In this document: piece after piece, positions 3,580 through 48,124 of the stretch
How the letters are laid out: every line of letters starts with the position of its first letter
Position numbering within the stretch: position 1 is the first letter of the stretch
Assembly (NCBI GenBank): GCA_014905635.1
Contig: JABVCE010000010.1
Span: 310,001 to 374,000 of the forward strand
Reading direction: 5' to 3'
Length of the DNA stretch: 64,000 nt
DNA from: Scenedesmus sp. PABB004
Lineage: Eukaryota
The notes under the pieces: model-generated
What the model was told of the DNA's origin: nothing
Seen by the model: the letters and a program-made list of their open reading frames with translations, nothing else
Databases searched by the model: none
Made by a program: the position numbers and the translations under genes

Positions 3580-4274
3580 GGCGGATGCGCGGACAACAAC
3601 GACGGCCGGGCGGGCCTCAGCGCATCTCGCGGGGCGCGGAGCGGGACCGGGGCGGCCTCCTGGGCGCGACGGGGCGCGGTGGGGGCCTCCCCGGGCGCCG
3701 CGGGCGCGGCGCTGGGGCCAGCAGCCCTGGGAACCCCAGACCCTGGAAGGCAGCTCCCGGCCGCCACAGGGCCCTGTCCCGCCCCGCGCGGCCCACAGAA
3801 GGCCGCAAGAACCCCGCGATGCGCCAGCGCGTGCCCGCCGGGCGCCGCGGGGCCGGGGCGGCCAGATCATCGGCGCCCGGGTGCCCCGCGCCGAGCCGGC
3901 ACCGCGCCGGGGCGGCGCCAGGTGTCTGCGCTCGGCACGACGTGGCGCCTGCGATCGGCGCACGCGGGCGGGCGCGGTCCCCGGCGCAGCTGTCGCGCGG
4001 CCGGGCGCGGCCAGGGCGCGCCGCTGCGGGCCCGGTGTGCGCCTGCGGGCGGCCGTGGAGCACGCGAGTTCGAATCGGGGCCCACAGCTCGCTGGGGGCG
4101 CGGCCACGCCGACCCAGCGCGGAGCGGGACGGCGCGCAGTGTTCCCGGTGCCGTGGTGCGCGCGCCTGCGGCCTCCAACGGCGCCCGCGACCCCACCACC
4201 GCGCTCCGGACGCGGCTGGAACGCACGGGCGACGCCGCGCGGCGCGCCTGCGCGCGCCGCGTGCCGCGCGCCGC

Positions 4275-4900
4275 GCGCCGCGTGCCGCGCGACCGCGCCG
4301 GCCGCGCCGCGCCGCGCCCCCCAGCACTGCGCCCGCGCCGCGCCGCGCCGCCGCCGCACCGGCCATGAAGATGACCACCTCGTAGCACCACCACTCCATG
4401 CAGATCATTGCGGCGGCGGGCAGGCCGTACGACAGGTACGTGCCCCACCCCGCCAGCACGGCGGCGCCCGGGCGCGGCCACGTCGCGTCGGGCGTGCCCG
4501 CGCGCGCCGCGTCGCGCCAGAGCGTGTAGCCCAGCAGCAGCGCGGCGCCGGTGCCCTGGCTCAGCACAAACGCGCGCGCCGCGCCGAGCAGGCCGAGCTG
4601 CCACCTGGGCGCGGCGGCGGCGCGGCGCGCGCGGCGCTGGGCGCGCTCGGCGCCCGGGCCTGGGCGCGCGCCCCGCGCACCGCCGCCGTCACCGCCGCCG
4701 TCACCGCCGCCGCCACCGCCGCACACCAACACACGCCCTGGCGGTGAGCAGCCAGAAGTACAGCGGCGCCGCGAGCGCGGTGACGATGGTCACGACCATG
4801 CCCGGCAGCACCACGCGCTGCGCGAGCAGGTAGCGCTTGAGGCACTCGGTCAGCGCCGCCATGAACAGCGTGGGCGTGATGGCCCACAGGTACCTGCGCG
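4275..4900 (-). pseudogene. Inverted partial duplicate of the MATE gene (two exons plus introns, copy of 6894-7525)
   Basis: Near-identical reverse complement encoding YLWAITPTLF...WLLTAR and WQLGLLGA...EVVIFMAG. The donor cag|gtgcgtg has lost its T (cagggcgtg). The other MATE exons are absent. Confidence 0.85.
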
Positions 4901-6078
4901 GGCGCCTCGCTGCCCGGGCCGTCGTCGCCCGGGTCGAGCGCGACCTGACGCGCTGACCGCGCACGCAGCGCGCGCCGACGCCCCCCCCCCCGACCGAGCG
5001 CACGCGGCGGCGGCACGGCTTATGTGCGTTGCGAGTGGGGGGCGCGGAGGTGCGGAGGGCGGGCGGCAGCGGCGGCGTCGCTGCCGGCGGGCGCCGGCGC
5101 GCGCGCGCGTGCCGGGCGGCGTGCGCCAGCCGGGCGCGCGCCGGCTGGGCGCGCCGCAAAAGAGGCACTGCGACTGGCGGTCAAGGGCCTCGACTCTTCG
5201 CAGCACCGTGGGCGGCGCGCCGACGCAGCCGGCCGCGGCCGCCCCAACGCGGCGCGGTCCAGCGGCTGCGGCGCAGTCGCTGCGCACGCACTGCCAGCCT
5301 GCCAGCCAGCTCCAGCCACGCGCGGCGCTGGCAGGTGCCGCTGTGCGCGCGCGCCTTGACCACGTTGACCACCCTGACCGCACCCGCGCCCGGCACGCGT
5401 TCGGCACGCCGTCTGGCACGCGCGCGCGTGCCCCGCGCTGGCCGCGCCCCGCACCGCGCTCGCACGTCCCGGAGTGGCGCCGCCGTCGCAGGCGTGCCAA
5501 GCGCGCGGCGCGGGGCGGGGCGCATGCCGAGCTGGTCGCGCAGCGCGGCGGGGCGGGTGAGGGCGCGGGCGCGGGCTGGCGCGCAGGCGCGCGCCGCGCG
5601 GCGTCGCCCAAGCGCGTCTGGAGCGCGGTGCGGGGGTCGCGCTGTGCGCGAGCGCGGTGCGTCGCGCGACCGCACCGGGCTCGCTGTGCGCCGTCCCGCT
5701 CCGCGCTCGGGGGCCGCGCGGCGGAGGTGCCAGTCTGCTGGGCGCCGCCGCCGCCACCGCTGGCGGCCGCCGCAGCAGGCGCGGCGACCGCTGGGCCGCA
5801 GCTTTGAAACGCGTCCGCTCACTCTTGCGCCCGCCGTCCGCCGCCGCGGCGCGCGGGCTGGCTCCCCAAACTCCATCGGAACCGGGGCTTGACGTAGAGC
5901 AGAACTGGGCCAGCCAGGCGCCTGCCAGGGGTTGGAGCGGCCAGCTGGGAGTCGCGCTCGGGCCAGGGCGCTCCCCGCGCGAGCGCCGGCGCCTGTGCGC
6001 CGCGGCGAGGGCGCCAGCGCATTGTCGCGTAGTCAGGAGTGCGAGGAGCGCGTGATCGCAGCAGCAGCGTAGCCCGCC

Positions 6079-8820
6079 ATGGCGGGGGAGTGTGCTGGAG
6101 CAGAGCGGGGCCTGGCTGGGCGCGCGGAGCAGCCGCTGGCCAAGCGGGTCGGCAAGGAGCTGATCAGGCGCGCCAGGGGGGACCAGACGCGCAGGGGCGG
6201 GGCCCCCGCGGCGCCCGCATGGCGCGCCGCAGCCCGCAGCGCGGCGGCGCCGCTGCTGCCGCGCTCCCGCCGAGCGCCCCCGGCTGGCCCGCGGCGCAGG
6301 CTCTCGCACATGGCGGGCCCGCTCTTCTTGCAGAACATCTTCTCCTACAGCACCTCGGTCGTCGCGGTCGCGTTCATCGGCCACCTCGGCGACAAGAGCC
6401 TGCTCGCCTCGGCGGTGCTCGCAAACTCGCTCTTCAACGTGACCGGCTACTCGGTCGTCTCCGGCCTCTCCGCCGGCATGGAGACGCTCTGCGGCCAGGT
6501 GCGCGCCGCGGCGGCAAGCGGCGGCGGTGGCGGCGGGCGGCAGCGGCGGGCGCGCCCCCGCCGCCGTGCCGCGGCGCCCACCGCGCCGCCGACGCCAGCG
6601 CCGCTTGCCGCCGCACCCGCCGCGCGCAGGCGTACGGCGCGCGCAGCTACAAGACGCTCGGCCTGGTGCTGCAGCGCGCGGTCGTGATCACCTGGCTCGC
6701 CTGCCTGCCCATCACGCTGCTGTGGGCGCACTCGGAGCGCGTCATGCTAGCGCTCGGGCAGGACCCGCACATCGCCGCCGGCGCCGCGACGTGCGGCGCC
6801 GCGCCGCGCCGCGCCGCGCCGCGCCGCGCCGCACGCGCGCCGCCGCCGCCGCCTCGCGCCGGGCCGCGGCCCCAACGCGCGTGTGCATGCGCGCGCGCAG
6901 GTACCTGTGGGCCATCACGCCCACGCTGTTCATGGCGGCGCTGACCGAGTGCCTCAAGCGCTACCTGCTCGCGCAGCGCGTGGTGCTGCCGGGCATGGTC
7001 GTGACCATCGTCACCGCGCTCGCGGCGCCGCTGTACTTCTGGCTGCTCACCGCCAGGTGCGTGTGTTGGTGTGCGGCGGTGGCGGCGGCGGTGACGGCGG
7101 CGGTGACGGCGGCGGTGCGCGGGGCGCGCGCCCAGGCCCGGGCGCCGAGCGCGCCCAGCGCCGCGCGCGCCGCGCCGCCGCCGCGCCCAGGTGGCAGCTC
7201 GGCCTGCTCGGCGCGGCGCGCGCGTTTGTGCTGAGCCAGGGCACCGGCGCCGCGCTGCTGCTGGGCTACACGCTCTGGCGCGACGCGGCGCGCGCGGGCA
7301 CGCCCGACGCGACGTGGCCGCGCCCGGGCGCCGCCGTGCTGGCGGGGTGGGGCACGTACCTGTCGTACGGCCTGCCCGCCGCCGCAATGATCTGCATGGA
7401 GTGGTGGTGCTACGAGGTGGTCATCTTCATGGCCGGTGCGGCGGCGGCGCGGCGCGGCGCGGGCGCAGTGCTGGGGGGCGCGGCGCGGCGCGGCGCGGCC
7501 GGCGCGGTCGCGCGGCGCGCGGCGCTCGGCGGCGGCGCGCGGGCGCGCGCCCCCGAGCGCCGCCCGCCCGCCGGCGGCCCGCAGGCGCCGCGCACAACGC
7601 GGAGCTCGCCGTGAGCGTGATGGGCATCCTCTTCCAGCTCTCAGCCTGCAGCTACATGTCAGGTGCGCGCGGAGGCCGCGCACATCGCCGCGACGCCCAC
7701 CGGACGCCCGCTGCGCCGCCCGCCGCGACGCCGCCCGCGGCGCCCGCCGCGCCGCGCACCGCGCCGCAGCCATGGCGTACGGCAGCTCCGTGAACACGCG
7801 CGTCAGCAACGAGCTCGGCGCCGGCCGCGCCGCGCCGGCGCGGCTCGCGTTCCAGATCGGCGTCTGCGCGGTGGTGGCGGTGCAGAGCCTGTGGGTGGTC
7901 GCGGGGCTCGCGTTTGGGCGCGCCCTCGTCGGCCTGCTGTCCAGCAACGCCGAGGTCGTCGCACACACGCTGGAGGTGCTGCCGCTCGTGATCCCCACCT
8001 TTGTCAGTGAGTCGCCCGCACCGCGCCGGCCTCGCCGCGGCGGCGCTGGGCCCGCGCCGCCTGTCCCCGCCCCCGCCGCGCCAGCCCCGCCGCCGCCCGC
8101 CCGCCGCAGCCGACGCGGTCAACTGCGTGTGCATGGGCGTGCTGCGCGGCGCGGGGCGCCCGGGCGTGGGCGCGGTGCTCAACATCATCGCCTACTGGAT
8201 GCTCGGCGTGCCGCTCGCGTGGCTGTTTGGCCTCCGCATGCGCATGAGCACGCGCGGCTTCTGGTGCGCGCAGCGGCGCCTGGCGCCGGGCGGCGCCGGG
8301 CGGCGGGCAGCCGACGTCGCCGCCGCGCGCCGCCGCGCCGCGGCGCAGGCTGGGGCTGCTCGTCACGAGCGCGGGGCAGTCGCTGGTGCAGCTCGCGGTG
8401 CTCGCGCGGCTCGACTGGCGGGAAGAGGTGGCGCGCGCGGCGGCGCTCATGGCGGGGCGGGACGACGAGGACGCCGACGCCAAGGCCGCCGCGCTCGGCG
8501 GCCTCGGCGCAGCAGCAGCAAAGCGCGGCGCCGGCGGCACCGCCAGCGGCGGCGACGACGACACGGCGCCGCTGCGCGACGGCGCGGCCGCGGGCGAGCG
8601 CGCGAGCCTGCTCGGCGGGCTGCGCAGCGGCAGCAGCAGCGGCGGGGAGCTGGCGGGGGAGCAGCAGGAGCAGCCGCAGCAGGGGCCCTGGCGGCCAGGC
8701 GGCTGCGGCCGTCGGCCAGGGTCGCCGCCGGGCGGCGCGCGCGCGGGCAGCGAGCTGCAGCTCGCGCCAAGCCTGCATCGGGAGCTGCTGGCCAGCCGTG
8801 ACAGCCTGGAGCGCGGCTGA
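6079..8820 (+). CDS. MATE/DTX family efflux transporter (~9 exons)
   Basis: Family motifs LASAVLANSLFNVTG...GMETLCGQAYGA, LQRA, RYLLAQ, MICMEWWCYE, TRVSNELGAG, GVLRGAGR, DWREEV. Confidence 0.93.
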
Positions 8821-9303
8821 GGGCGCGCGGGGCGCGGGGCGCGCCGCCCGCGCCGGGTGCGCTGGCGCGCGCCGGCGCGGCGTTCGCGCGCCGCCACCGG
8901 CGCTGCCCGGCCGCGACGACCCCCGTGGAGGCGACGGCATCTCGGGCGGAGCTGGCCGGCGGGCAATGCGCCCGGCAGCGATGCCGGTCTGGTTTTACGG
9001 TCTCAGCCCCCGCGGCCCGCCCGGTCTCAACCGGCGTTTGCCGCGCGCGCGCCGGGCCGCCAGTTGCGCCTTCCGGTCGGACACCGGCCACGACGCCGCG
9101 GACGCAGCTCGCGCTCGCGCCGGAGCTCCGCGCCCGCGCTGTGCAGCAGCAGCAGGCCCCGCCGCCGCGCTCGCGCGCCCGGCGCTCGCGCTGAGCTGCT
9201 CTCAGCTCGTAAAGTGCGGCTAAGGAGCTCCTGGGCCGCCCGCAAGGCCTCCAGGCGGAGCACAGCGCCAGCGGGCAGCGCGGTAGACCCAGCGCTGGTC
9301 GGA

Positions 9304-14815: not shown

Positions 14816-14939
14816 GCTCGCGGCGGAGGTCCCCCGAGCTGCACACCCGCGGAGGGGAGCGTGCACACGCGCAGTGTTGCCCGCCGACGTCCCGACACCA
14901 ATGCCGGCAGCTGCGCGGGCAGTGCCCGCACGGCCACCG

Positions 14940-16937
14940 AGCCCCCCCCCCACAGCGCGCCACCCCCTCAGACCCCGGCGCCACGCTCGAGGGCAAAGAG
15001 CCAGCCCCAGCAGCTCAGCGGGCCGGCGGCCGCTCAGTCGGTCTGCATGGCCACCAGCTGCCCCGGCTCCTCCTTGACTGCCGGCTCCTCCCCCCCCGGC
15101 TGCACCTTGGTGGCCGCCGCCGCAGCCACCGCTGCGGCCAGCTGCTGCAGCGCCTCGGCCGCGGGGTGGTCAGGCGCGGCGCGCGGGGTGAAGCTCTCGA
15201 CGTCGCCGCGGCGCAGCGTCGCGACCACGGCGTCGCGCGACATGCCCGCAAGAGCGCCCAGCTCGCGCGTGTACTCTGACAGCGGCAGCTGCGCGACGTG
15301 CGGCGCGCGGCGGGCGGGAGAGGGCGGGGGGCAGGACATCGCGCCGGTTGGCCAGCGCAGGCGCGGCGGCGCAGCACGCGCCGGCTGGGCGCCCGAGCGC
15401 TCGCCAGCGGCCGGCGCGCACGTTGGTGGCCGCGGCGGTGCCCCAGAAGGCGAGGGCCGCCAGGTCGTAGGCCCGCGCCGCCTCCACCTCAGTCGCAAAG
15501 CCACCGAGGTAAACCTGGCGGCCGCGCGTGCGCCCGCTGCCGGCGGTGTTCTTGCGCGGCGCGGCCGCGTCCCACAGGTGCGACTGCGCAGCGGGCGGGG
15601 GTGCGCGTCCGTCAGGGGCGCCGCATCTGTCAGGGGCGCTCCCGCCGCCATGCTGGTGCCGCGCCGGCGCCTCACCTCCCACTTGCCGGTCCAGCGGTGC
15701 CGTGTGACGCCCTTGAAGGTGCTGGTGGACGAGTGTGACACCGCGGTGCCGCGCGCCAGCCCCGCCGGCGCGGCGCCGGCAAAGGGCAGGCCGGCGGGGT
15801 CGTTGTAGCTGACGGCAGGGTTGGCGAGTGCCGCGCGCGCGGCGCGCTGGGCGGCGCGGCCTGCGGCGTCGCGGCGCGCGCGGCGGTGGTCAGCGGTCGG
15901 CGACCAGCGCCGTGCGCCGCGCAGCAGGGCCCTGGCCGCCTCGCAGCGCAGCAGCACTCACTGGTGCTCTCGTAGTCGCTGCCGTCGCTGCCGCCCCCGC
16001 TGCCGCCCCTGGCGCGCGCCGCCAGCCCCGCCTGCGCGTGGCCCTTCTTCTTGGCTGAGCCGCCGCTCGCACGGCCGCCCCCGCTGCCGCCGCTGCCGCC
16101 GGGCTCCCTGGCCGCGGCGCGCTTGCGGCCGGCCATGAGCCCCTGGCCGTGCCCCAGCACCGCCGCCGCGAACGTGTCCTGCACCTCGGTGCCCGCCTCC
16201 TCCGTGCCAGTGCTGCCGTCCTGCAGGGCGGCCTCCCCACCGCCGCTGTCGCTGGCCGGGCCAGGGCGGCGCCGGCCCGGCAGCCCCGCCTGGCCGCCCA
16301 GCGCCAGGTCCCAGACCGTCGCCGCGGCCGCGGCCATGCTGGGCGAAATCAGCTGCCCGCCCGGCGCCAGAGCCCAGCTCGGGAAGTCAGCAAACGGACT
16401 GCCCGGCGCCGCCACGCTGGGCTCGAGCAGGACCGGGCTGCCAAGGCGCTGCAGCGGCGGGGGGCACGTGGCGGCCAGGCTGCCGGGGTGCAGCTCGGTT
16501 GAGCTGCACGACACCGGCAGCGAGCACTTGTGGCCGGGCTCCGCCTCGCCGGCGCCACGCGGAGCCGCGCCGCCGGCGCCAGCGCGGCCGGCGGCGCGGC
16601 CGGCCGGCCGAGCGCTCGGCTTGGCGCGCGGCGGCGGCGCGGCCTCGGCGCGGTCCGCCACGGCAGCCGCCGGCAGCGGCGCCTCCGGCGGGCGCGGCGC
16701 GACCATGGGAATGGATCCGGCCGTCACGGCGGCGCCGCCGGCGATGGGCAGGCACGGTGCAGCCGCCGCCGCCGCCGCCGCCGCGCCGGGGCGCGCGGGC
16801 CCGAGCTCGCTGCCCTCCGGCGGGCCGACCAGCCCAAGCGGCCCCCAGCTTTCTGGCAGGACCTTATGGAAGAAGAAGCCCAGCTCCGAGCTGCTGTGTG
16901 CCAGCGGCGTGGCGAGGTACGCGCCGGCCAGCTGCAG
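14940..16937. repeat. Left arm of a ~2 kb inverted repeat (partner 18635-20610)
   Basis: Reverse-complement match including introns and 3' UTR. Confidence 0.92.
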
Positions 16938-17729
16938 GCCCGCGCCGCCGGGCAAGCTGTGATCGAAATCCACATGGCTGGGGTCGGCCAGGCCGGGCAG
17001 GCTGGGCAGCCCGGTGCTGTCATCGAGGCTCGCCACACCAGTGCTGGAGCCGCGCGCGAGGCGGTGCGCCTGCGCCTGCGCGGCACCTGGGAAGCTCGCT
17101 GCCGTGAGCGCCGCGGCCGCCGCAGCGGCCGAGCCGGGCACGTGGCGCGCCGCCGGCCTCGCGGCGGGGCCGTCCGGCCAGCTCGGCGCGCGGTGCGGGG
17201 GCGGGGGCGCAAAAGCAAAGGGAAGAGTCAGCTGGGCGCCAGCGAGCTGGGGGCCGGCGAGCAGGTCAGCCGCTGCGCCAGGCGGCGCGCCGGGCGCCCC
17301 GAGCGGCGCGAGCGCGCGGCGCGGTGGTGCAGCGCGCACGGCTGCGCCCGCCAGGCCGGCGCCACGCGGCCCCGCGCCGCCGGCGCCGAGCTGCGCCAGC
17401 TGGTCTGCGAGGTTGAGTGAGAGGCCCGCCGTGAGGCCGCCGGGCGCGCCGGGCGCCAGGAACATGAGGTCGGGCGACGCGCCCTGCAGCGCGTCGGAAA
17501 GGCCCAGCGAGCCCGAGCTGGAGCTGCTGCCGAGCAGGCCCAGCGCGGCGCCGTCGCCGGAGCTGGCGGCGCCCAGGAGGAGGCCAGCCAGCGCGCCGCT
17601 GGCTGGCGGCGGCGGCGCCGGCGCGGCGGCCGGCGGCCCTGCGCGGACGGCAGGGGCGCGTGAGTCGCACGGGTCTGCTGAGGCGGGCCCCTGGGGGCAG
17701 GCGCCCTGGTCCTCACCTGGCTCGTGCAT
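15034..17729 (-). CDS. AP2-domain transcription factor, ANT/WRI1-like single AP2 (copy A; start uncertain)
   Basis: [21 protein letters not shown]...[29 protein letters not shown].....[28 protein letters not shown], preceded by a long low-complexity N-terminus. Confidence 0.88.
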
Positions 17730-18560
17730 GCCAGCGGCGGCGCCGCTACTCAGCGGCGCGCGCGTTGGCGCCGACCGGAGCCACCCGTCGCGCGAGCGAG
17801 CGCGTCCCAAGCCGACCCCTGGCTCTTCGGAGGCGGCCCTGGGCAACACGGGCGCGAAGCGCTGCAAAAGGCGCGAGGCCCGCCGCAGCCCGCCGCGCGC
17901 GCGCCGCTGCGGTCGGTCGGAACGGCGACGCCGAGAGCGAGGCTCTGAAGCGAGCGAGCGAGGAGTGTTCGTGGCACCGTCCGCGCATGAGCGCTGTGCG
18001 GCAGACCGAAACGGTCACGAGAGCGCGCGCGGCGCCGCTACAGCCGCGGCGTGCAGGTACTTCAGAACCACCACTTCCGCCTTCCACACAACGTCCGCAG
18101 CACTCCGCGAGCCGCTGCAGACACCAGCCCTGCCTGCGCTGGTCTGCCGCCTCGCACGCAGCGCCGCCGCTGCCGCCCGCAGCGCACGCAGCTGGCCCCG
18201 TGCGGCTGCTCCCCTGCCGCTCGGTCCGTGCCTGCGTCGGGCCGCACCGCCAGCGCGGGCAGCCGGGCGATGCTGCTGCGGCACGCGGCGGGCGCAGCAG
18301 CAGCCGCTTCCGGTCCGCGCCCCCGCTGGCCCGTGCCGCCGCCGGCCGCCCCGCCTGCCTGGCACCGTCACCGACAGCGCGCTGCCGCCATGGCCGCGCC
18401 GGGCGGCGGTAGCGGCGACGCGGCGGCGCAGCAGCAGCAGCGCGAGCAGCAGCTGCTGAGCGCGCGCCTCGCGGACAGCCACCCGCAGGTGGGCGCCAGC
18501 GACGGCGGGGGCGCGCTGCCGGGGACGCCACGGCGGCAGCGCCGCAACCATGCCGCGCAG
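17604..18560. repeat. First copy of a ~0.95 kb direct repeat (partner 20644-21620): AP2 5' end, divergent promoter, TatD exon 1 and intron 1
   Basis: Near-identical direct match, e.g. tacttcagaaccaccacttccgccttccacacaac occurs in both copies. Confidence 0.92.
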
Positions 18561-20516
18561 ACGCCGCGCCGCCGCTGCGCGCCAAGCCCGGCCTGCCGCG
18601 TGCGCCGCCGTGTCAAACCACGCCGCTGCGGCCGCAGGTCGCCGGCGCGTACCTCGGCGCGCCGCTGGCACACAGCAGCTCGGAGCTGGGCTTCTTCTTC
18701 CATGAGGTCCTGCCAGAAGGCCACGGCCCGCCTGAGCTGGCCGCCCCGCCGGAGGGCAGCGAGCTCGGCGCGGCGGCGGCGGCTGCACCGTGCCTGCCCA
18801 TCACCTGTGGCGCCACCGTGACGGCCGGCTCGGGCATGCCCACAGCCGCGCCGCGCCCGGCAGAGGCGCCGCTGCCGGCGGCCGCCGTGGCGGAGCACGC
18901 CGAGGCCACGCCGCCGCCACGCGCCAAGCCGAGCGCGCAGCCGGCCGGCCGCGCCGCCGGCCGTGCTGGCGCCGGTGGCGCGGCTCCGCGTGGCGCCGGC
19001 GAGGCGGAGCCCGGCCACAAGCGCTCGCTGCCGGTGTCGTGCAGCGCAACCGAGTGCCCCCCGCCGTCGCGGGGCTTCGGCGGTGCGCCGCTGCAGCGCC
19101 TCGGCAGCCCGGTCCTGCTCGAGCCCAGCGAGGCGGCGCCGGGCAGTCCGTTTGCTGACTTCCCGAGCTGGGCTCTGGCGCCGGGCGGGCAGCTGATTTC
19201 GCCGAGCCTGGCCGCAGCCGCGGCAGCGGCGGTCTGGAGCCTGGCGCTGGGCGGCCAGGCGGGGCTGTCGGGGCTGCCGGGCCGGCGCCGCGCCGGCCCG
19301 GCCAGTGACCGCGGCTCCAGGCGGGCCGCCCTGCAGGACGGCAGCACTGGCACGGAGGAGGCGGGCACCGAGGTGCAGGACACGTTCGCGGCGGCGGTGC
19401 TGGGGCACGGCCAGGGGCTCATGGCCGGCCGCAAGCGCGCCGCGGCCAGGGAGCCCGGCGGCAGCGGCGGCAGCGGGGGCGGCCGTGCGAGCGGCGGCTC
19501 AGCCAAGAAGAAGGGCCACGCGCAGGCGGGGCTGGCGGCGCGCGCCAGGGGCGGCAGCGGGGGCGGCAGCGACGGCAGCGACTACGAGAGCACCAGTGAG
19601 TGCTGCTGCGCTGCGAGGCGGCCAGGGCCCTGCTGCGCGGCGCACGGCGCTGGTCGCCGACCGCTGACCACCGCCGCGCGCGCCGCGACGCCGCAGGCCG
19701 CGCCGCCCAGCGCGCCGCGCGCGCGGCACTCGCCAACCCTGCCGTCAGCTACAACGACCCCGCCGGCCTGCCCTTTGCCGGCGCCGCGCCGGCGGGGCTG
19801 GCGCGCGGCACCGCGGTGTCACACTCGTCCACCAGCACCTTCAAGGGCGTCACACGGCACCGCTGGACCGGCAAGTGGGAGGTGAGGCGCCGGCACGGCA
19901 CCAGCATGGCGGCGGGAGCGCCCCTGACAGATGCGGCGCCCCTGACGGACGCGCACCCCCGCCCGCCGCGCAGTCGCACCTGTGGGACGCGGCCGCGCCG
20001 CGCAAGAACACCGCTGGCAGCGGGCGCACGCGCGGCCGCCAGGTTTACCTCGGTGGCTTTGCGACTGAGGTGGAGGCGGCGCGGGCCTACGACCTGGCGG
20101 CCCTCGCCTTCTGGGGCACCGCCGCGGCCACCAACGTGCGCGCCGGCCGCTGGCGACCGCTCGGGCGCCCAGCCGGCGCGTGCTGCGCCGCCGCGCCTGC
20201 GCTGGCCAGCCGGCGCGATGTCCTCCCCCCGCCCTCTCCCGCCCGCCGCGCGCCGCACGTCGCGCAGCTGCCGCTGTCAGAGTACACGCGCGAGCTGGGC
20301 GCTCTTGCGGGCATGTCGCGCGACGCCGTGGTCGCGACGCTGCGCAGCGGTGACCTCGAGAGCTTCACCCCGCGCGCCGCGCCTGACCACCCCGCGGCCG
20401 AGGCGCTGCAGCAGCTGGCCGCAGCGGCGGCCGCGGCCACCAAGGTGCAGCCGGGGGAGCAGCAGCCGGCGGTCAAGGAGGAGCCGGCGCAGCTGGTGGC
20501 CATGCAGACTGACTGA
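18390..20516 (+). CDS. Chimeric TatD-exon1::AP2 transcription factor (copy B), ~550 aa
   Basis: Exons 18390-18488, 18638-19595, 19697-19881, 19974-20135 and 20268-20516 join in frame with GT-AG sites; the AP2 domain is intact. Confidence 0.72.
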
Positions 20517-20643
20517 GCGGCCGCCGGCCCGCTGAGCTGCTGGGGCTGGCTCTTTGCCCTCCAGCGTGGCGCCCGGGTGTGAGCGGGTGGCGCGCTGGGG
20601 GGGGGGCCTCGACGGTCGCGCCGGGGGCCTCGGCGGTCGCGCC

Positions 20644-20769
20644 AGGCGGCGGCGGCGCCGGCGCGGCCGCCGGCGGCCCTGTGCGGACGGCAGGGGCGCG
20701 TGAGTCGCACGGGTCTGCTGAGGCGGGCCCCTGGGGGCAGGCGCCCTGGTCCTCACCTGGCTCGTGCAT
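20644..20769 (-). pseudogene. Truncated 5' stub of the AP2 gene, reading into the antisense of copy B
   Basis: [28 protein letters not shown]... matches the N-terminus of copy A, then breaks at ~20644. Confidence 0.75.
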
Positions 20770-21432
20770 GCCAGCGGCGGCGCCGCTACTCAGCGGCGCG
20801 CGCGTTGGCGCCGGCCGGAGCCACCCGTCGCGCGAGCGAGCGCGTCCCAAGCCGACCTCTGGCTCTTCGGAGGCGGCCCTGGGCCGCAACGCGGGCGCGA
20901 AGCGCTGCAAAAGGCGCGAGGCCCGCCGCAGCCCGCCGCGCGCGCGCCGCTGCGGTCGGTCGGAACGGCGACGCCGAGAGCGAGGCTCTGAAGCGAGCGA
21001 GCGAGGAGTGTTCGTGGCACCGTCCGCGCATGAGCGCTGTGCGGCAGACCGAAACGGTCACGAGAGCGCGCGCGGCGCCGCTACAGCCGCGGCGTGCAGG
21101 TACTTCAGAACCACCACTTCCGCCTTCCACACAACGTCCGCAGCACTCCGCGAGCCGCTGCAGACACCAGCCCTGCCTGCGCTGGTCTGCCGCCTCGCAC
21201 GCAGCGCCGCCGCCGCCGCCCGCAGCGCACGCAGCTGGCCCCGTGCGGCTGCTCCCCTGCCGCTCGGTCCGTGCCTGCGTCGGGCCGCACCGCCAGCGCG
21301 GGCAGCCGGGCGATGCTGCTGCGGCACGCGGCGGGCGCAGCAGCAGCCGCTTCCGGTCCGCGCCCCCGCTGGCCCGTGCCGCCGCCGGCCGCCCCGCCTG
21401 CCTGGCACCGTCACCGACAGCGCGCTGCCGCC

Positions 21433-22949
21433 ATGGCCGCGCCGGGCGGCGGTAGCGGCGACGTGGCGGAGCAGCAGCAGCAGGAGCAGCAGCTGGAGCA
21501 GCAGCACCAGCTCGCGCGGCGCCTCGCGGATGCGCACTGCCACCCGCAGGTGGGCGCCAGGCCTGGCCGCTGCCGGGGGACGCCACGGCGGCAGCGCCGC
21601 AAGCGCGCCGCACCGCGCGCAGCTCGACCCCGCGCGCCTGGGCGACGTCGTGGCGCTGGCGTGCCCGCGCCTGGCGGCCATGAGCGTCTCGCTGGACGTT
21701 GACTGGGACCTCACCGCGCGCCTGGCGCGCCTCGCCGGTGCGGCGGCGGCGCCGCCGGGCAGGGGCTCCCTGTGTGGGGCCCGCGCCGCGCGGCCCCGCG
21801 GGCGCCGCCGACTGCAGCCGCGCCGCCTGCGCGCGCAAAGCCCCCAAGGTGCTGCCCGGCTTTGGCATCCACCCCTGGTGGGCGCACCTGCACGCCTCGG
21901 CCGTTGGCGACACCTGGCCGGACCTGCTGGAGGCGCGGGCGCCGGGGGACGTCGACGCGGCCATCGCCATCCTGGCGCACCACGACCCGGTGACAGACTC
22001 TGGCGCGTACGCGACCAACCGCCCCGCCGCGCCTGACGCGGCGCAGCCCGCCGGCGGCGGCCCCGAGCAGCGGGCGCAGCAGGCGCAGGCGCAGCCGCAC
22101 CTGGGCGCGGGGCTGCGCGTCGTGCCGCAGGCCGAGTGGGAGGCGCGCCTGCGCGCGCTGCTGGTGGAACACCCGCACGCCCTTGTCGGAGGTGCGTCAG
22201 CCGCGCGCGCCGCCGGCCGCGCTGCCGCGCGAGGCGCGGGCGCGCGCGGAGCGCCCGGCCGCGCGGCCGCACCCGCTCCCGCCGCCGCGGCGAGCGCCCG
22301 TCCACAGAGATTGGTATAGACCGCGCCGCGACCATCCCCGGCAGCCGCGCGCGCACGTCGCTCGCGCATCAGCTGGAGCTCGTGCGCCGCCAGGTGCGCG
22401 CCGCTGCGCCTGCGCAGGCGGGCGGGCGGCGGCCGCGGGGGCGGCTCGGCGCGCGCGCGCCCGCGCGCGCGCCCACGCGCGCCCGCGCCGCGCCCGCTCG
22501 CCGCGCAGGTCGCGGTCGCGGCCGAGCTGCGGCGCCCCGTGAGCGTGCACTGCGTGCGCGGCTACGGCGCGCTGCTGGGCCTGCTCGCCGACCTCCCGCC
22601 CGGCGCCGCGCCGCCGGGCGTGATGCTGCACAGCTACGGCGGCAGCGTGGAGGAGGTCCGGCGCTTCGCGGCGCTCCCGCACGGCGTCGGGCGGCGCGTG
22701 TTTTTCAGCTTCAGCGCCGCCATCAACGCCCGCGCGCCCGCCAAGCTCGCCGCGCGCATTGCGGCGGTGCCGGACGACCGGCTGCTGCTCGAGAGCGACC
22801 AGGTCACGCCGGGCGCGATTGACCCCGGGCTCGCGGCGATCGCTGCCGCTGCCGCTGCCGCCAAGGGCTGGAGCCTGGCTGAGACCGCGGAGCGCGCGCT
22901 GGCCAACTTTGAGGACTTTTACGCCGACCAGCTCGCGGCCCTCGGGTAA
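21433..22949 (+). CDS. tatD: TatD-family metal-dependent DNase (5 exons)
   Basis: DAHCH, GFGIHPWW, VGEIGID, PVSVHCVR, MLHSYGGS, LLLESD motifs. Confidence 0.92.
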
Positions 22950-23836
22950 CCCACGCCTCAAAGGGAGCAGCACGGTGCCCCCCACCCCCTTCCCGCCCCA
23001 CCCGCGTGCGCTGCGCGGGCCGTCCCGAGGGCAGGCGGGCGTCGGCGCAGCGGCGCCCCCGTCCGGTGGCGGTGCGGAGCCTGCGGGTGGGTGGTCGCAG
23101 GCGGCACAGCGCGGCACCTTTCGCCATCTCACGACCTCGGTGGCGGCGAGGGTGCCGTCGACCACGGCACGCGGCCGGTGGTGGCGGCGACGGGAGTGCG
23201 GGTGACGCCCCGCGCCGCGGCGCACCCGGGCGCCGGCAGCAAGCCGCTTGTTCCTGTGGTGACCAGCACAACGCGCTCGAGCTCAGGGCCGGCGGCGGCG
23301 GCGGCGGCGGTCTCTGTCATTCTCCCCGCCGGTGCCCTTCCAGCGCGCTTCGCTGCTGCCACGCCTGCTCGACTCGCGACGCCGGCGCGCCCCGCCGCCC
23401 GCCCGCCAGTTCGCTCAGTGATCACCCGAAGGTCACGGCGCGCACGGCAGGAGCCAATTTGGGCGGCGCGACCCCAGCGGACCAACGCGACCGGCCAGCA
23501 CACCGCCCGCCCGCACGCCGAGACGCCCCAGTTCGATCCGTGCGGTCACAGCGCCGCGTCGGAGGCGGTCCGCGCCTCGCGTTCAGGTGCGCAGCGGGCC
23601 GCACGGCCGTGCAGGCGAAGGCCCCGCCCGGCGCGCCCAGGGCCGCCGCGGCCGCGCGTCCGGGCCCGGCGACACGAGGGTGCTGAGGGCGATCGCCTGC
23701 CGTGCGCGCCGCGGCCGGGGGGCGTGTGGCACCGGCCTGACCCCGTTGGGCATCTCACGCGCAGGGGCGCCCCCGCTCACTCCCGCGCGCCGCAGGCGAG
23801 CGCGGGAGGCCCGACAGCAGCTGCAGCAGCAGCAGC

Positions 23837-25990
23837 ATGGCGCGGAGAAGCAGCAGCAGCAGCAGCCGGGCGCCGCGCGCCGCGCTGGTGGCGGCGCTGC
23901 TGGCTGTGGCCGCCGCGGCCGCGGCCGCCGACGACGGCAGCGGCCTCGGCGGCGGCGGCGGCGGCGCGACGCCCAGCCAGGGCGGCGGCGTGACGAGCTG
24001 CAGCACGCGCTGCCGGGACCAGCAGCTGCGCATGACGAGCTCGCGGCTGCCGGACGTCCGCGACGCGGCGAAGCAGCAGTTTTGCGCCCCTGCCAACGCC
24101 TGCAGCGGGTGCCCCGGCTTTGGCAGCGTCTGCTTCACCGGCCAGGCCTGCAAGGGCCCGCCGACCGATCAGCCGGCGCTCCTGGACTCGTGGCAGTGCG
24201 CGAGCATGCCGGGGAGCATGCCGGTCGGCTTTGTGTGCGGCGGGCTGTGCGCGGCCGGCAGCGTGGGCCGCCTGAGCGCCCGCTGCGTCGCCGACCCCGC
24301 GGGCGGCGACCCGACGTGGGCGCCGACGGAGGGCGCCTGCACGCCTGGCTGCCCAGGCCCGCCGCTCGGCCCCGCGCCCGGCGGCGCGATGTGGGGGCCG
24401 TGCGCCCCGGCGCCGGCGGGCGGCGTCTGCTCGGCGGCGTGCCCGCGCGGCACGCGCGGCACCGTGACAGCGGTGTGCGTGGCCGACGCGAGCGGCCGCG
24501 CCAGCTGGGCGCCGCCGACGGGCAGCTGCGACCGCGCGTGCGCGGGCCGGCCGCCGCCGTTTGCCGGCGGGCGCTTGAGCTACACGGGCTACACCTGGCT
24601 CGCGCCCGAGTGCGCCGACGCGGCGCCCGGCACGGTGTGCACGGGCTCCGCGGCGTGCGGCCGGCCCATCACCGCCTCCACGGACGCGACCGCCGTGTGC
24701 GGCGCCGACGGCGTCTGGCGCGTCACCGTCGACGGCTGCCGGCCGCCCGCCTGCGTGCCGTCGCCCGTCGCCAGCGGCGCGCGGCTGGCGACGTCCTGCT
24801 CGCGCGGCATGCTCGGCCAGACGTGCAGGCTGAGCTGCGCGCCGCCGTTCACGGCGTCGGGCAGCGGCCCCGTCGCGACGTGCACCGCCGACCGCGGCTG
24901 GGTGGTCGCTGGCGGCTGCGGGCCCGCCAGCCTCTCGCTGGCGCTCGCGCCTGGCACCGCCACGCCGCTCGCCCCCGGCACGGCGCTGGAGCTGCGGGCC
25001 ACGCTCTCGAACCGCGACCCCGCGGGCGCGAGGGGCGTCGCCGTCACGCTCAGCACGGCGCTGTCGTGCGCGTCGACGACGGCCACGACCGGCGACGACG
25101 GCGTCGCCGCCTTCGCCTGTACTGCCGGCGCGGTCAGCCCGCTGCCGTCGGCGGCGCTCGCGTCGGCGACCGCCTCGCTGACGGTCAGCGGCGCGGCGCT
25201 GCGCGTGTTCAGCGCGCCCCTGCTCCTGCCGCTCGCCGGCGGGCTGTGCGGCGCCTGGGGCCCGCCGCCGCCGCCGCCGCCGGCGCTGCGCTCGTTCCAG
25301 GGCTTTGAGGCGGACGCGGCGGGCTGGAGCGGCACCTTTGACCGCGTGCAGTCGAGCGACGCGCTCGAGGGCGCGTGGTCGCTGGCGGCGGGCCTCAGCA
25401 CCGACGCGCCCGCGGCGACCAACTTCAGCGGCAGCGGCGCCGCCTTCCCGCCGAGCCGCACCGCGGTCAGCCAGGTCGCGGTGTGGCTCGACCCCGCCGC
25501 CGGCTACGCGGCCGGGCAGGCGTTTGCCTGGGTGGTCAGCCTCGGCACCGTGCCGGGCGGCGCGGCGCGGCAGTACGCCATCAGCGTCGCGTGGTACGCC
25601 CCCGAGGTCGGCGGCGACCCGCCGTCGTTCTGGGTCGTCGGCAGCGCCGACGGCGGCGTGGCGAGCCCGCGCGACAGCGACGCGGCGGTGCGTGTCGCGT
25701 CGGCGGGCTGGTACGTGCTGCAGCACCGCTTCACGGCGACCGAGTGCACCGACGGGCTGCAGGACCTGGGCGGGCAGTGCACGGGCGCCACGCTCGCCGT
25801 GTTTGCGGCGGCGCCCGGCGGCGCGTGCGGCGCGCCGGTGGAGGACGCGCAGTGGGAGGTGCCGGACGACAACAGCGCCGACGACGCGGCGGCGCTCGCG
25901 GGCGTGCGCGGCGGCGCGCTCGCCTTCCTGGGCGGCGGCTGGACGGTGCCGCCCCTGCGCCTCGACGCGGCGGCACTGTACGTCATCTGA
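23837..25990 (+). CDS. Intronless 717-aa secreted mosaic protein: signal peptide, Cys-rich CCP/sushi-like repeats, Ig-like domain, poly-Pro linker, C-terminal beta-rich domain
   Basis: Single ORF with coding-like composition, hydrophobic N-terminus, repeated C..C..G...C....W....G.C. TGTAA at 26362-26366. Confidence 0.8.
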   Translation: MARRSSSSSSRAPRAALVAALLAVAAAAAAADDGSGLGGGGGGATPSQGGGVTSCSTRCRDQQLRMTSSRLPDVRDAAKQQFCAPANACSGCPGFGSVCFTGQACKGPPTDQPALLDSWQCASMPGSMPVGFVCGGLCAAGSVGRLSARCVADPAGGDPTWAPTEGACTPGCPGPPLGPAPGGAMWGPCAPAPAGGVCSAACPRGTRGTVTAVCVADASGRASWAPPTGSCDRACAGRPPPFAGGRLSYTGYTWLAPECADAAPGTVCTGSAACGRPITASTDATAVCGADGVWRVTVDGCRPPACVPSPVASGARLATSCSRGMLGQTCRLSCAPPFTASGSGPVATCTADRGWVVAGGCGPASLSLALAPGTATPLAPGTALELRATLSNRDPAGARGVAVTLSTALSCASTTATTGDDGVAAFACTAGAVSPLPSAALASATASLTVSGAALRVFSAPLLLPLAGGLCGAWGPPPPPPPALRSFQGFEADAAGWSGTFDRVQSSDALEGAWSLAAGLSTDAPAATNFSGSGAAFPPSRTAVSQVAVWLDPAAGYAAGQAFAWVVSLGTVPGGAARQYAISVAWYAPEVGGDPPSFWVVGSADGGVASPRDSDAAVRVASAGWYVLQHRFTATECTDGLQDLGGQCTGATLAVFAAAPGGACGAPVEDAQWEVPDDNSADDAAALAGVRGGALAFLGGGWTVPPLRLDAAALYVI

Positions 25991-32638: not shown

Positions 32639-35600
32639 ATGCTGGCCACTCAGCAGCCCGCGGCGCGCGCCGCCGCGGCGCTGGGCCGCGGCTGGCTGTG
32701 GGGCAGCCTGCGCGGCCTGGCCGCGGCCGCCGCCGCCGCGGTGGGCTGCCGGCACCCGCGCGGACGCCCGCCCGCCCGGCGGGCCGGGCCCGCGGCGGCA
32801 GCAGCGCCCGCGAGGCTCCGCCGCTGCACCGCGCCGCCCCGCAGCCCAAGGTGAAGCTTCTGATCGACGGCCAGTTCGTGGACTCCACCACCGACTCCTG
32901 GGTCCCCGTCACCAACCCGGTGCGGCACCGGCGCCGGCGGCGGCGACGGCCCCGCTGCCGCGCTGGCCGCAACAGAGTGAGAGCAGCGCCGCGCCTCTGC
33001 CGCGCCGCGCCGCGCCGCAGGCGACGCAGGAGGTGGTGGGCCGGCTGCCGCTGACGACGGAGCGGGAGTTCAACGCCGCGGTCGCGGCGGCCAAGGCCGC
33101 GTTCCCGGGCTGGCGCGCGACGCCCGTGCCCGCGCGGCAGCGCGTGATGCTCAAGTTCCAGGAGCTCATCCGCGCGCACTGGGTGCGCCGCTTGCAGGAC
33201 GGGGCGCACGCCGCTTGCAGGACGGGGCGCACGCCGCTTGCAGGACGGGGCGCACGCCGCTTGCAGGACGGGGCGCACGCCGCTTGCAGGACGGGGCGCA
33301 CGCCGCTTGCAGGACGGGGCGCACGCCGCGCCTCGCTTGCAGGGCAGGGCAGGGCCCGCGCAGCTTGCAGGACGGCCCGGTTGGCTCGCAGGACGGGGCG
33401 CACGGCGAGTGACGGGCGAGCGCCGCGCCGACACGCGCCGCCGCGCCGCCGCAGGATGAGCTCGCGCGCAGCGTGACGACGGAGCAGGGCAAGACGTTCC
33501 AGGACGCCAAGGGCGACGTGTTCCGCGGCCTCGGTGCGCGCGCGCCGCACGTCAAGGGCGCCGCGGGAGCGCGCGCCGAGCCCAGCGCATGCCTCCTCCC
33601 GGGGCCTGCGCGAGCGCCGCGCCGCGCCGAGTCGCGCCGCAGAGGTGGTCGAGGCGGCGTGCAGCGTCGCGCCGCTGCTGATGGGCGAGACGGTGGAGAA
33701 CGTGGCGGGCGGCATCGACTGCTACAGCCTGCGCCAGCCCCTCGGCGTGCGCCGCGCGGCGGCCGCGCGGCCGCGCCGGCGCAGCGCTCGCGCGCCCGGC
33801 CGCCCGCGGGCCGCGCGGCCGCGCCGGCGCAGCGCTCGCGCGCCCGGCCGCCCGCGGGCCGCGCGGCCGCCCGCCCCGCGCGCGCCGCCGCGACCGGCCG
33901 CGGGCCCGCGCCGCGCGCCGCCCCGCGCCGTCCCGCGCCAGGTGTGCGCGGGCATCTGTCCGTTCAACTTCCCTGCGATGGTCCCGCTGTGGATGTACCC
34001 CATGGCCATCGCCGCGGGCAACACCTTCGTGCTGAAGCCGAGCGAGCGCGACCCCGGGGCGAGCATGATGCTGGCCGACCTCGCGCAGCAGGCGGGCCTG
34101 CCAAAGTGCGCGCGCCGCGCGCCGCGCGCCGCGCGCCGCCGCCGCCGCCGCCGCCGCCGCGGGGCCCTTCCCGGGCGCGCCGCGGGGCCGCCGCACATGC
34201 ACATTCGCCGGCGACGCGCGCCCGCCGCGCCCGCCGCGCCGCGCCCGCCGCTGGCCCCCTCCTCCCAGGGGCGTGCTCAACATCGTGCACGGCACACACG
34301 ACACGGTCAACCGCCTGCTGGACCACCCCGACGTCGCGGCGATCAGCTTTGTCGGCGGCGACGCGGCGGGCCGCTACATCTACGCGCGCGCCGCGGCAAA
34401 CGGCAAGCGCGTGCAGGTGCGCCGGGCGCGGCGGGGCGGCGCGGCGGTGGCGGCGGGCGTGGCGCGCGCTGGCGCCACGCCGGGGGCGGCCCCGAGGGCC
34501 GCGCCGCCCTGCACCCCCTCGCCTCCCCTTCCCACCCCACCCACAACAACACACCACCACCGCCACCAACGCCGCCGCTCCCGCCCGCCCTCGCGCCCGT
34601 GCCCGTGCCCCACACAACAACGCTCAGTGCAACATGGGCGCCAAGAACCACGCCGTCATCATGCCCGACGCCGACCCGGGGCCGACCGTCAGCGCGCTCA
34701 CGGGCGCCGCGTTTGGCGCGGCGGGGCAGCGCTGCATGGCAGTCAGCGCCGCCGTGTTTGTCGGCGGGTTTGAGCGCTGGCGCGCGCCGCTGCTCGACGC
34801 GGCGCGCAGCCTCAAGGTCCGCGCCGCCGGCCGCGCCGCCGCGCCGCGCCGCGCCGCGCCCTCCGCGCGCCGCCGCGCGCACGAGCGCGAGCGCGGGCCC
34901 GCCGCCGCCGCGGCCGGCTGCCGCACCGGCGCAGGTCAACGGCGGCTTTGAGCGCGACGCCGACGTGGGCCCCCTCATCTCCCCCGAGGCCAAGGCGCGC
35001 TGCGAGGCGCTCATCCAGTCGGCCATCGACCAGGCGCGGCAACCACGCTCGCCCTGCAGGCCGCCCGCGCGCCGGGCCGCGCACCGGGCCGTCCGTCCGC
35101 CGGGCTGCGCCGCCCCGCCCGCCGCGCTGGTCCGACCCCGCGCCCACGGCACGCCGCCGCCGCGCCCGGCGCCGCCCGCTGCCGCTGCCGCGCAGGGCGC
35201 CGAGTGCGCTCTGGACGGGCGCGGCGTGGCGGTGCCTGGCTACCCGCGCGGCAACTTTGTGGGGCCCACGCTGCTGGCCGGCGTGGCGCCGACCATGGAC
35301 GTGTATCGCCAGGAGGTCTTTGGCCCCGTGCTGAGCTGCCTCGAGGTGAGGGACAGGGGAATGGGGGCGCGCGGGCGTGTGGGTGTGTGACAACTGTGAC
35401 AAATGTGCGCGCGCGCGTGTGTGTGTGTGAGTGCGCGTGTGTGTGTGTGAGTGCGCGTGTGTGTGTGTGAGTGCGCGTGTGTGTGTGTGAGTGCGCGTGT
35501 GTGTGTGTGTGTGTGGGGGGGGGGTGCATTGAGGCGGCGAGCGCCGCGAGGCGGCGCGCCTGAGAGCTGCCGCGACGTGCGCGCTCCCGCGTGCCGTGCT

Positions 35601-48028: not shown

Positions 48029-48124
<96 letters not shown>

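Follow-up and report, generated by a model that had tools for sequence, protein, structure and literature searches.

The 64-kb window analysed here, a stretch of the genome of the green alga Scenedesmus sp. PABB004 (assembly GCA_014905635.1), carries an inverted and 5'-truncated copy of an AP2 gene that stands behind copies of the promoter region and first exon of the neighbouring TatD-family gene. As judged from the sequence, this complex local duplication is genuine in the assembly, and a frame that fuses the TatD-derived first exon to the truncated AP2 copy (positions 18390–20516 of the window, plus strand) exists. The architecture is the one described by a first-pass annotation of the same DNA, which had gone on to call the fused frame a young, selected transcription factor gene. 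In contrast to that reading, the truncated copy (copy B, its parent being copy A) is a candidate, promoter-equipped AP2 paralogue and not a demonstrated new transcription factor. We put the probability that B is a tolerated by-product of the duplication, possibly transcribed, at about 50%, and consider this more likely than a selected new transcription factor.

From left to right, the rearranged locus comprises AP2 copy A on the minus strand, the first of two direct repeats (R1), a filler (L1), the inverted copy B, a second filler (L2), the second direct repeat (R2) and the rest of the TatD gene. The arms of the inverted repeat are 2.0 kb each and separated by 1.7 kb. Arm A (14938–16940, minus strand) holds the 3' two-thirds of the AP2 gene plus 96 nucleotides (nt) of 3' flank, and arm B (18630–20611, plus strand) holds the truncated copy, which matches A from 16940 to 14938. 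They align in blastn at 93.2% identity over 2018 columns, 51 of which are gap columns (E 0.0). The 91 substitutions split into 47 transitions and 44 transversions, and the indels are mostly multi-base, with only two 1-nt indels in 2 kb; the several indels and many substitutions with a preserved frame that the first-pass annotation had noticed are thus present. In one scrambled patch, B 19055–19075 faces A 16493–16460 around a common 12-nt block (TGCCCCCCGCCG), with 27 extra nt before the block in A and 24 extra nt after it in B, so that the two differ by a net 3 nt. A compensated frameshift may account for the patch, or else a small complex mutation; a small inversion behind it was unsupported when the A/B alignment was inspected by eye.

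The direct repeats R1 (17605–18547) and R2 (20645–21602), both read on the plus strand, are 95.8% identical over ~0.94 kb (BLAST E 0.0). They contain the start of AP2 exon 2 (34 nt), AP2 intron 1, AP2 exon 1, the promoter region, TatD exon 1 and the greater part of TatD intron 1. The region between the divergent AP2 and TatD start codons measures 660 nt and constitutes a bidirectional promoter region. R1 is joined directly to the real AP2 gene and R2 directly to the real TatD gene; therefore, the block between R1 and R2 is the new one. A reading of R1, B and R2 as an element with long terminal repeats is ruled out, as R1 and R2 run directly into the real AP2 and TatD genes. Both joints of copy B carry filler sequence for which no source was detectable. 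The filler at joint 1 (L1, 69 nt, 18561–18629, plus strand) is without significant source match: compared with TatD exon 2 and with A upstream of 16940, the observed local-alignment score was reached by 14 of 500 and 78 of 500 shuffles, respectively. The filler at joint 2, read directly from the sequence (L2, 33 nt, 20612–20644, plus strand), is overlapped by a ~21-nt unit present twice in tandem at about 20602–20643.

A relic of the 5' end of AP2 is also present in R2, where self-alignment places it upstream of the real TatD gene, running antisense into B. On the minus strand it consists of an ATG at 20769, exon 1 (20769–20757), an intron and an exon 2 stub (20678–20645), and its spliced open reading frame (ORF) encodes 72 amino acids (aa). 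The relic retains the ATG, the donor and the acceptor (20679/20678), and is 97–100% identical to R1 there. Since R2 has a copy of the AP2-side promoter aimed into B, B lies between convergent promoter copies.

The TatD side of the locus supplies the proposed first exon of the chimera. The real TatD-family gene occupies 21433–22949 on the plus strand (PF01026, E 5e-16; 91.8 bits, profile positions 2–252). Its exon 1 (21433–21549, plus strand) reads DAHCH, its last exon ends at 22946 and its stop codon is at 22947–22949. Exon 1' (18390–18488, plus strand) is a degraded copy of this exon with 33 codons. Its first 31 nt and its donor region are identical to the parent, its middle part has diverged and is 18 nt shorter with two 9-column gaps, and 21 of 35 residues are identical at the protein level (E 4e-07). 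The DAHCH of the parent is DSH in exon 1', so the His-x-His (HxH), which we take to be the N-terminal metal-binding motif of the TatD family, is gone. Both the origin of the exon and the loss of the motif had been recognized by the first-pass annotation. Exon 1' has no Pfam match, whereas the parent matches PF01026 from profile position 2; by the HxH motif, exon 1' would no longer count as a TatD-family sequence. The TatD-side promoter copy in R1 is better preserved. Between 17605 and 18389, 6 positions and one 3-nt indel separate it from the version before TatD, corresponding to 99–100% identity over about 780 nt. Given this near-identical promoter copy before exon 1', transcription into B is likely.

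The fused frame itself is complete. Its five exons (18390–18488, 18638–19595, 19697–19881, 19974–20135 and 20268–20516, plus strand, 1653 nt), joined at 18488|18638, encode 550 aa without a stop. The phase-0 donor is CAG|GTGGGC (18488/18489), and the proposed chimeric intron of 149 nt (18489–18637, plus strand) ends in the acceptor GCCGCAG|G at 18637. In the A/B alignment, this acceptor (GCCGCAG|GTC GCC GGC GCG TAC, 18637/18638) faces the coding sequence CTGCAG CTG GCC GGC GCG TAC of A, and is derived from former AP2 coding sequence. These features were correctly described in the first-pass annotation, as were the five exons, the ~550-aa frame and the intact AP2 domain, which scores 36.3 bits against a Pfam gathering cut-off of 33.3. 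The N-terminal loss stood as a truncation but not in its size: B starts at residue 241 of A and has lost the first 240 residues, not ~260. With two parental genes and a junction inside one open frame, the locus has the structure of a putative chimeric gene, and an in-frame 550-aa product, TatD-exon-1'::AP2(241–763), is possible.

Splicing in frame, as originally proposed, is thus possible, but the parental acceptor has been kept. A full copy of TatD intron 1 (18489–18560, plus strand; 72 nt, 73 nt in the parent) ends in the acceptor CGCGCAG| at 18560, which puts AP2 out of frame and yields an ORF of 119 aa. Both GCAG acceptors (18560 and 18637) match the pattern of the eight real introns in the AP2 and TatD genes. 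A B transcript may therefore be spliced at the surviving parental acceptor, and hence out of frame. Farther downstream, intron 4 of B (20136–20267; 132 nt, 133 nt in A) is open in frame, and its retention would add 44 residues between the AP2 domain and the linker while keeping the ORF. B retains only 96 nt past the stop codon, which together with the convergent AP2-side promoter in R2 argues for messy expression.

The AP2 domain places both copies in the AP2/ERF superfamily. Copy A is a gene of 763 aa on the minus strand (15034–17729; exons 17729–17717, 17638–15962, 15860–15676, 15583–15422 and 15288–15034), and our own five-exon model is identical to GenBank KAF8063710.1, named 'BBM2'. Its Pfam AP2 domain (PF00847) lies at residues 612–673 with 35.9 bits against the gathering cut-off of 33.3; that of copy B lies at residues 401–462 of the GenBank protein KAF8063711.1 (P0002), so that both domains exceed the cut-off by which membership is defined. 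Residues 607–707 of A align with residues 6–102 of WRI1 (7wq5_A), with 79 bits for this stretch and a protein E value of 1.3e-29. The AP2 domain and linker of A and B are accordingly of the repeat-1 type of the AP2 subfamily, which includes WRI1 and ANT. This part of the earlier 'ANT/WRI-like' label holds, but the architecture differs: like WRI1, ANT and BBM, A has the first AP2 repeat and the linker, and unlike them, A and B have one AP2 repeat only. Pfam finds one repeat in A and one in the B part of P0002, the second repeat of WRI1 aligns only back onto the same region of A, and copy A ends 56 residues past the linker. A and B thus differ from ANT, BBM and WRI1 in architecture and putatively work like them, and the name 'BBM2' in GenBank reflects no more than a best hit. 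Over the AP2 domain A and B are identical, and two residues differ at the linker end (LRRGDV in A, LRSGDL in B), where the conserved LRR common to A and WRI1 is LRS in B.

The ~600 residues N-terminal to the AP2 domain found no homologue outside this locus in a HMMER search of 1.84 billion representatives, both of the two hits being from this locus itself. A scan of JGI metagenomes with B exon 2 matched 598 pattern stretches, of which none was confirmed, and a search with an exact 31-mer of the AP2 domain returned 0 matches.

The junction of the fused frame is already present in GenBank, in a model that is unlikely to represent a transcript. KAF8063711.1 (named 'scn1', 1686 aa) begins with exon 1' spliced to 18638, the same junction, and its residues 33–352 match A residues 240–563 (query positions 235–558) at 87% in HMMER. 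The model reads through B intron 4 and then jumps at about 20445 via a 975-nt intron (20446–21420), ~7 times the local norm. It resumes just before the TatD start codon, spans all of TatD, skips the TatD stop and continues through the downstream Cys-rich gene (23553–25990) to about 25990. This looks like an ab initio fusion of three genes through stop-poor sequence, and because of the three-gene fusion and the 975-nt intron, KAF8063711.1 is not transcript-like evidence. It is probably an annotation error in which a protein named after TatD hides both the true TatD and the AP2 paralogue. Neither KAF8063710.1 nor KAF8063711.1 is discussed in any paper that we found. The description of the chimera as 'new' therefore needs qualification: the junction had been deposited, although buried in a three-gene fusion.

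The preservation of the AP2 domain in B can be explained by exchange with A. The central tract of B (19327–20330, plus strand), which holds the whole AP2 domain, is ~99.4% identical to A 16230–15330, introns included, with 5 substitutions and one 1-nt indel. Across a slightly wider interval (19322–20340), B is 97–100% identical to A through exons and three introns. Identity drops to 58–97% toward joint 1 (18630–19321) and to 87–97% toward joint 2. Similarly, the identity of R1 and R2 is 97–100% up to 18381 and 58–82% beyond, next to joint 1. Since introns are as identical as exons in the center and identity decays toward the edges of homology, the ~1-kb central tract is presumed to reflect gene conversion between A and B. 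Because introns and exons are equally similar around the AP2 domain, the intact domain is no evidence for selection on B.

An open frame is also a poor indicator of selection in this sequence. G+C content across the window is 78–82% and its spliceosomal introns are short; the stop frequency is 0.0075 per codon, and 2.2% of single-base changes in the B frame create a stop. For a 93%-identical copy, 0.8–1.6 new stops are expected under neutrality, and the probability of none is 0.2–0.46. With stops this rare at 80% GC, the open B frame is uninformative. The ratio of non-synonymous to synonymous divergence (dN/dS, omega), estimated pairwise between A and B by the Nei-Gojobori method over 504 codons, was 0.58 overall. 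Outside the presumed conversion tract, it was 0.67 in the diverged 5' part (21.8 differences counted as synonymous and 37.2 as non-synonymous, synonymous divergence (dS) 0.127; Fisher p 0.13 versus neutrality) and 0.41 in the 3' part (5 synonymous and 6 non-synonymous differences). A pairwise omega of 0.6–0.7 would fit a constrained A with a neutral B as well as weak constraint on both. The claim of a 'young, selected' gene is not sustained by these values, as 0.58–0.67 is not significantly below 1 and the identity of the AP2 domain falls within the conversion-like tract.

Several observations nevertheless weigh against the by-product interpretation, and speak for a functional in-frame chimera, i.e., a selected AP2 factor with the DNA-binding domain of A and without its first 240 residues, which would compete with or modulate A. 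Omega stays under 1 in all partitions. All 8 coding indels have lengths divisible by three or a net length of three, which holds for 2 of 5 indels outside coding sequence (Fisher p 0.035). One substitution, a synonymous one, falls in the 679 exon nt of the central tract, compared to 4 in its 325 intron nt (p 0.04). The amino-acid differences show mild clustering (p 0.057), and B shows no drift toward AT (28 vs 31 sites). The next acceptors after 18560, AAG| at 18586 (exon from 18587, 567 aa) and GCAG| at 18637 (550 aa), both lead into the AP2 frame, and the parental acceptor may have been weakened by the loss of 7 nt shortly before 18560. A trained gene finder accepted the in-frame junction in KAF8063711.1, which is no proof of a transcript. 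The structural features described above, namely the promoter copy, the intact ATG, first 31 nt and donor, the acceptor that fits the local pattern and the 550-aa frame with an AP2 domain over the Pfam cut-off, also favor this explanation. The patterns of divergence named first amount to weak hints of constraint on B. Of the 6 AP2-frame indels, at least 4 fall within triplet (GCN) or 9-nt repeats, and slippage there proceeds in multiples of three anyway. The non-significant omega, the conversion that explains the AP2-domain identity, the retained out-of-frame acceptor, the fused nature of the GenBank model and the uninformative open frame all count against a selected product, and with no homologue outside this genome, the changes between A and B cannot be polarized. 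We therefore regard a functional chimera as doubtful.

An assembly artefact, in which A/B and R1/R2 are alleles, strain variants or the product of chimeric reads strung together, is improbable. Alleles of a working gene would explain the frame-preserving indels, and a nearly perfect second inverted repeat lies nearby; as a partial inverted gene copy (MatE) in the same window, this repeat counts on the side of a real structure as well. However, an artefact would need two non-natural joints with fillers, and B adjoins R2 by its 3' end, an arrangement that no haplotype switch produces. Nor is R1 a working TatD allele, because exon 1' lacks the HxH and L1 does not encode TatD exon 2. The differences between the copies are substitutions and multi-base indels, unlike the 1-nt noise of read errors, and the 5.7-kb structure is presumably shorter than typical long reads. 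The window contains 0 Ns, and the assembly is contiguous, with 39.8 Mb in 77 contigs (N50 1.3 Mb), 7,092 genes, a GC content of 78.5% and 1.31% repeats (PMC12571836). Contigs of a freshwater-metagenome run (X1; contigs only, share 0.07, depth about 2.5) were compared with positions 17000–20700. Among its 51 records, 45 lie only partly on this interval, and the pieces are mostly 31–34-nt fragments of longer contigs, apparently from other GC-rich organisms. Two contigs are informative. One of 164 nt (19857–20020) equals B at 3 of 3 B-specific sites, and one of 159 nt (17715–17870) carries R2-specific variants, so the same or a very close alga was present in the sample. That only B-type and R2-type variants appear fits B and R2 as one haplotype and is compatible with either a real duplication or an artefact. 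No X1 contig bridges either joint with at least 31 letters on each side, the uncovered parts being uninformative.

A further explanation concerns the RNA rather than the protein. The AP2-side promoter in R2 may fire on the minus strand into B, producing RNA complementary to the AP2 mRNA that would down-regulate A by double-stranded RNA; read-through to A would give a 2-kb hairpin. One model has plant small-RNA genes arising when a target gene is duplicated in inverted orientation. The convergent promoter copies around B, the AP2 ATG (20769), donor and acceptor preserved in R2, and the dimensions of the arms (2.0 kb long and 1.7 kb apart, with 93% identity overall and 99.4% in the center) are in accord with such a role, but an antisense RNA co-regulated with its own target would be costly. 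As the main function of B, this is very unlikely. A combination of both activities appears unlikely: the R1 promoter would drive a truncated AP2 competitor (a 33-residue TatD leader plus A 241–763), and the R2 promoter would drive antisense over the same 2 kb. If such a two-way module existed, AP2 dosage would be tuned at the protein and RNA levels by one gene born from template switching.

The by-product interpretation can be accommodated by a single rearrangement. In the ancestral state, a minus-strand AP2 and a plus-strand TatD gene would have had the 660-nt region as their common divergent promoter. A single replication-type event may then have switched templates twice. It would have copied forward through R to about 18547–18560, passed to the opposite strand at about 16940 and run back to about 14938, which would yield the inverted copy B. 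A second switch back to about 17605 and renewed forward copying would have produced the second direct copy of R. What results is an AP2 paralogue that lacks its 5' end and is preceded by a promoter, start codon and first splice donor copied from the TatD side with 99% identity. Any microhomology at the joints has been obscured by the age of the event (dS about 0.12 at the edges). That B looks intact could be attributed to ongoing conversion with A over the central ~1 kb, the rarity of stops at 80% GC and the location of most indels in triplet repeats.

Rearrangements of this type are known from template switching by fork stalling and template switching (FoSTeS) or microhomology-mediated break-induced replication (MMBIR), where direct duplications flank an inverted segment (duplication-inverted triplication-duplication, DUP-TRP/INV-DUP type). 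Consistent with them, R1 and R2 flank the inverted B, the templates lie within 3.7 kb, fillers occur at both joints and the divergence of the AP2 locus is highest beside the joints. Unlike those cases, which span tens to hundreds of kilobases, the structure here is on the kilobase scale, and its mechanism is inferred. In Drosophila, jingwei and Sdic are new chimeric genes that arose through duplication with exon shuffling, and transcripts, population data and selection tests exist for both. As in jingwei and Sdic, a duplicated gene piece has come under a neighbor's promoter and taken over its start codon and first exon with the ORF in frame, and the donated exon, here exon 1', is without its old function. 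In contrast to them, the AP2 case is known from an open frame and an ab initio model, and the frame-breaking parental acceptor persists. It also departs from the TatD family (PF01026), as exon 1' is joined to no other TatD exon and contributes a 33-residue leader only.

As it stands, the case is an ordinary one, since local duplicates that are young and still open in frame occur frequently, and an open frame is weak evidence at 80% GC. If the fused frame were expressed, the locus would represent a compact and datable gene birth in a green alga through a single local rearrangement, in which a truncated AP2 regulator was given a housekeeping-type promoter, a start codon and a splice donor with conversion with its parent ongoing.

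The poly(A) signal TGTAA, found 3 times in the 64 kb and never near the AP2 or TatD genes, is uninformative here. Other repeats are present in the window. Self-BLAST of the window detected several short tandem or dispersed repeats with units of ~34–100 nt and 77–100% identity (33186–33404, 33727–33937, 35367–35513, 48030–48123, 52802–52988 and 56519–57423). A second local inverted repeat pairs 4226–4905 with 6889–7566 at 97.4% identity over 683 columns, with a nearly 100% identical core of ~600 nt and sharp edges. Its right arm (6889–7566) lies within a MatE-family transporter gene (Pfam MatE in ORFs 6033–6941 and 7391–8998, plus strand); thus, the left arm (4226–4905) is a partial inverted copy of MatE exons ~2 kb upstream, an event like the one at the AP2 locus.

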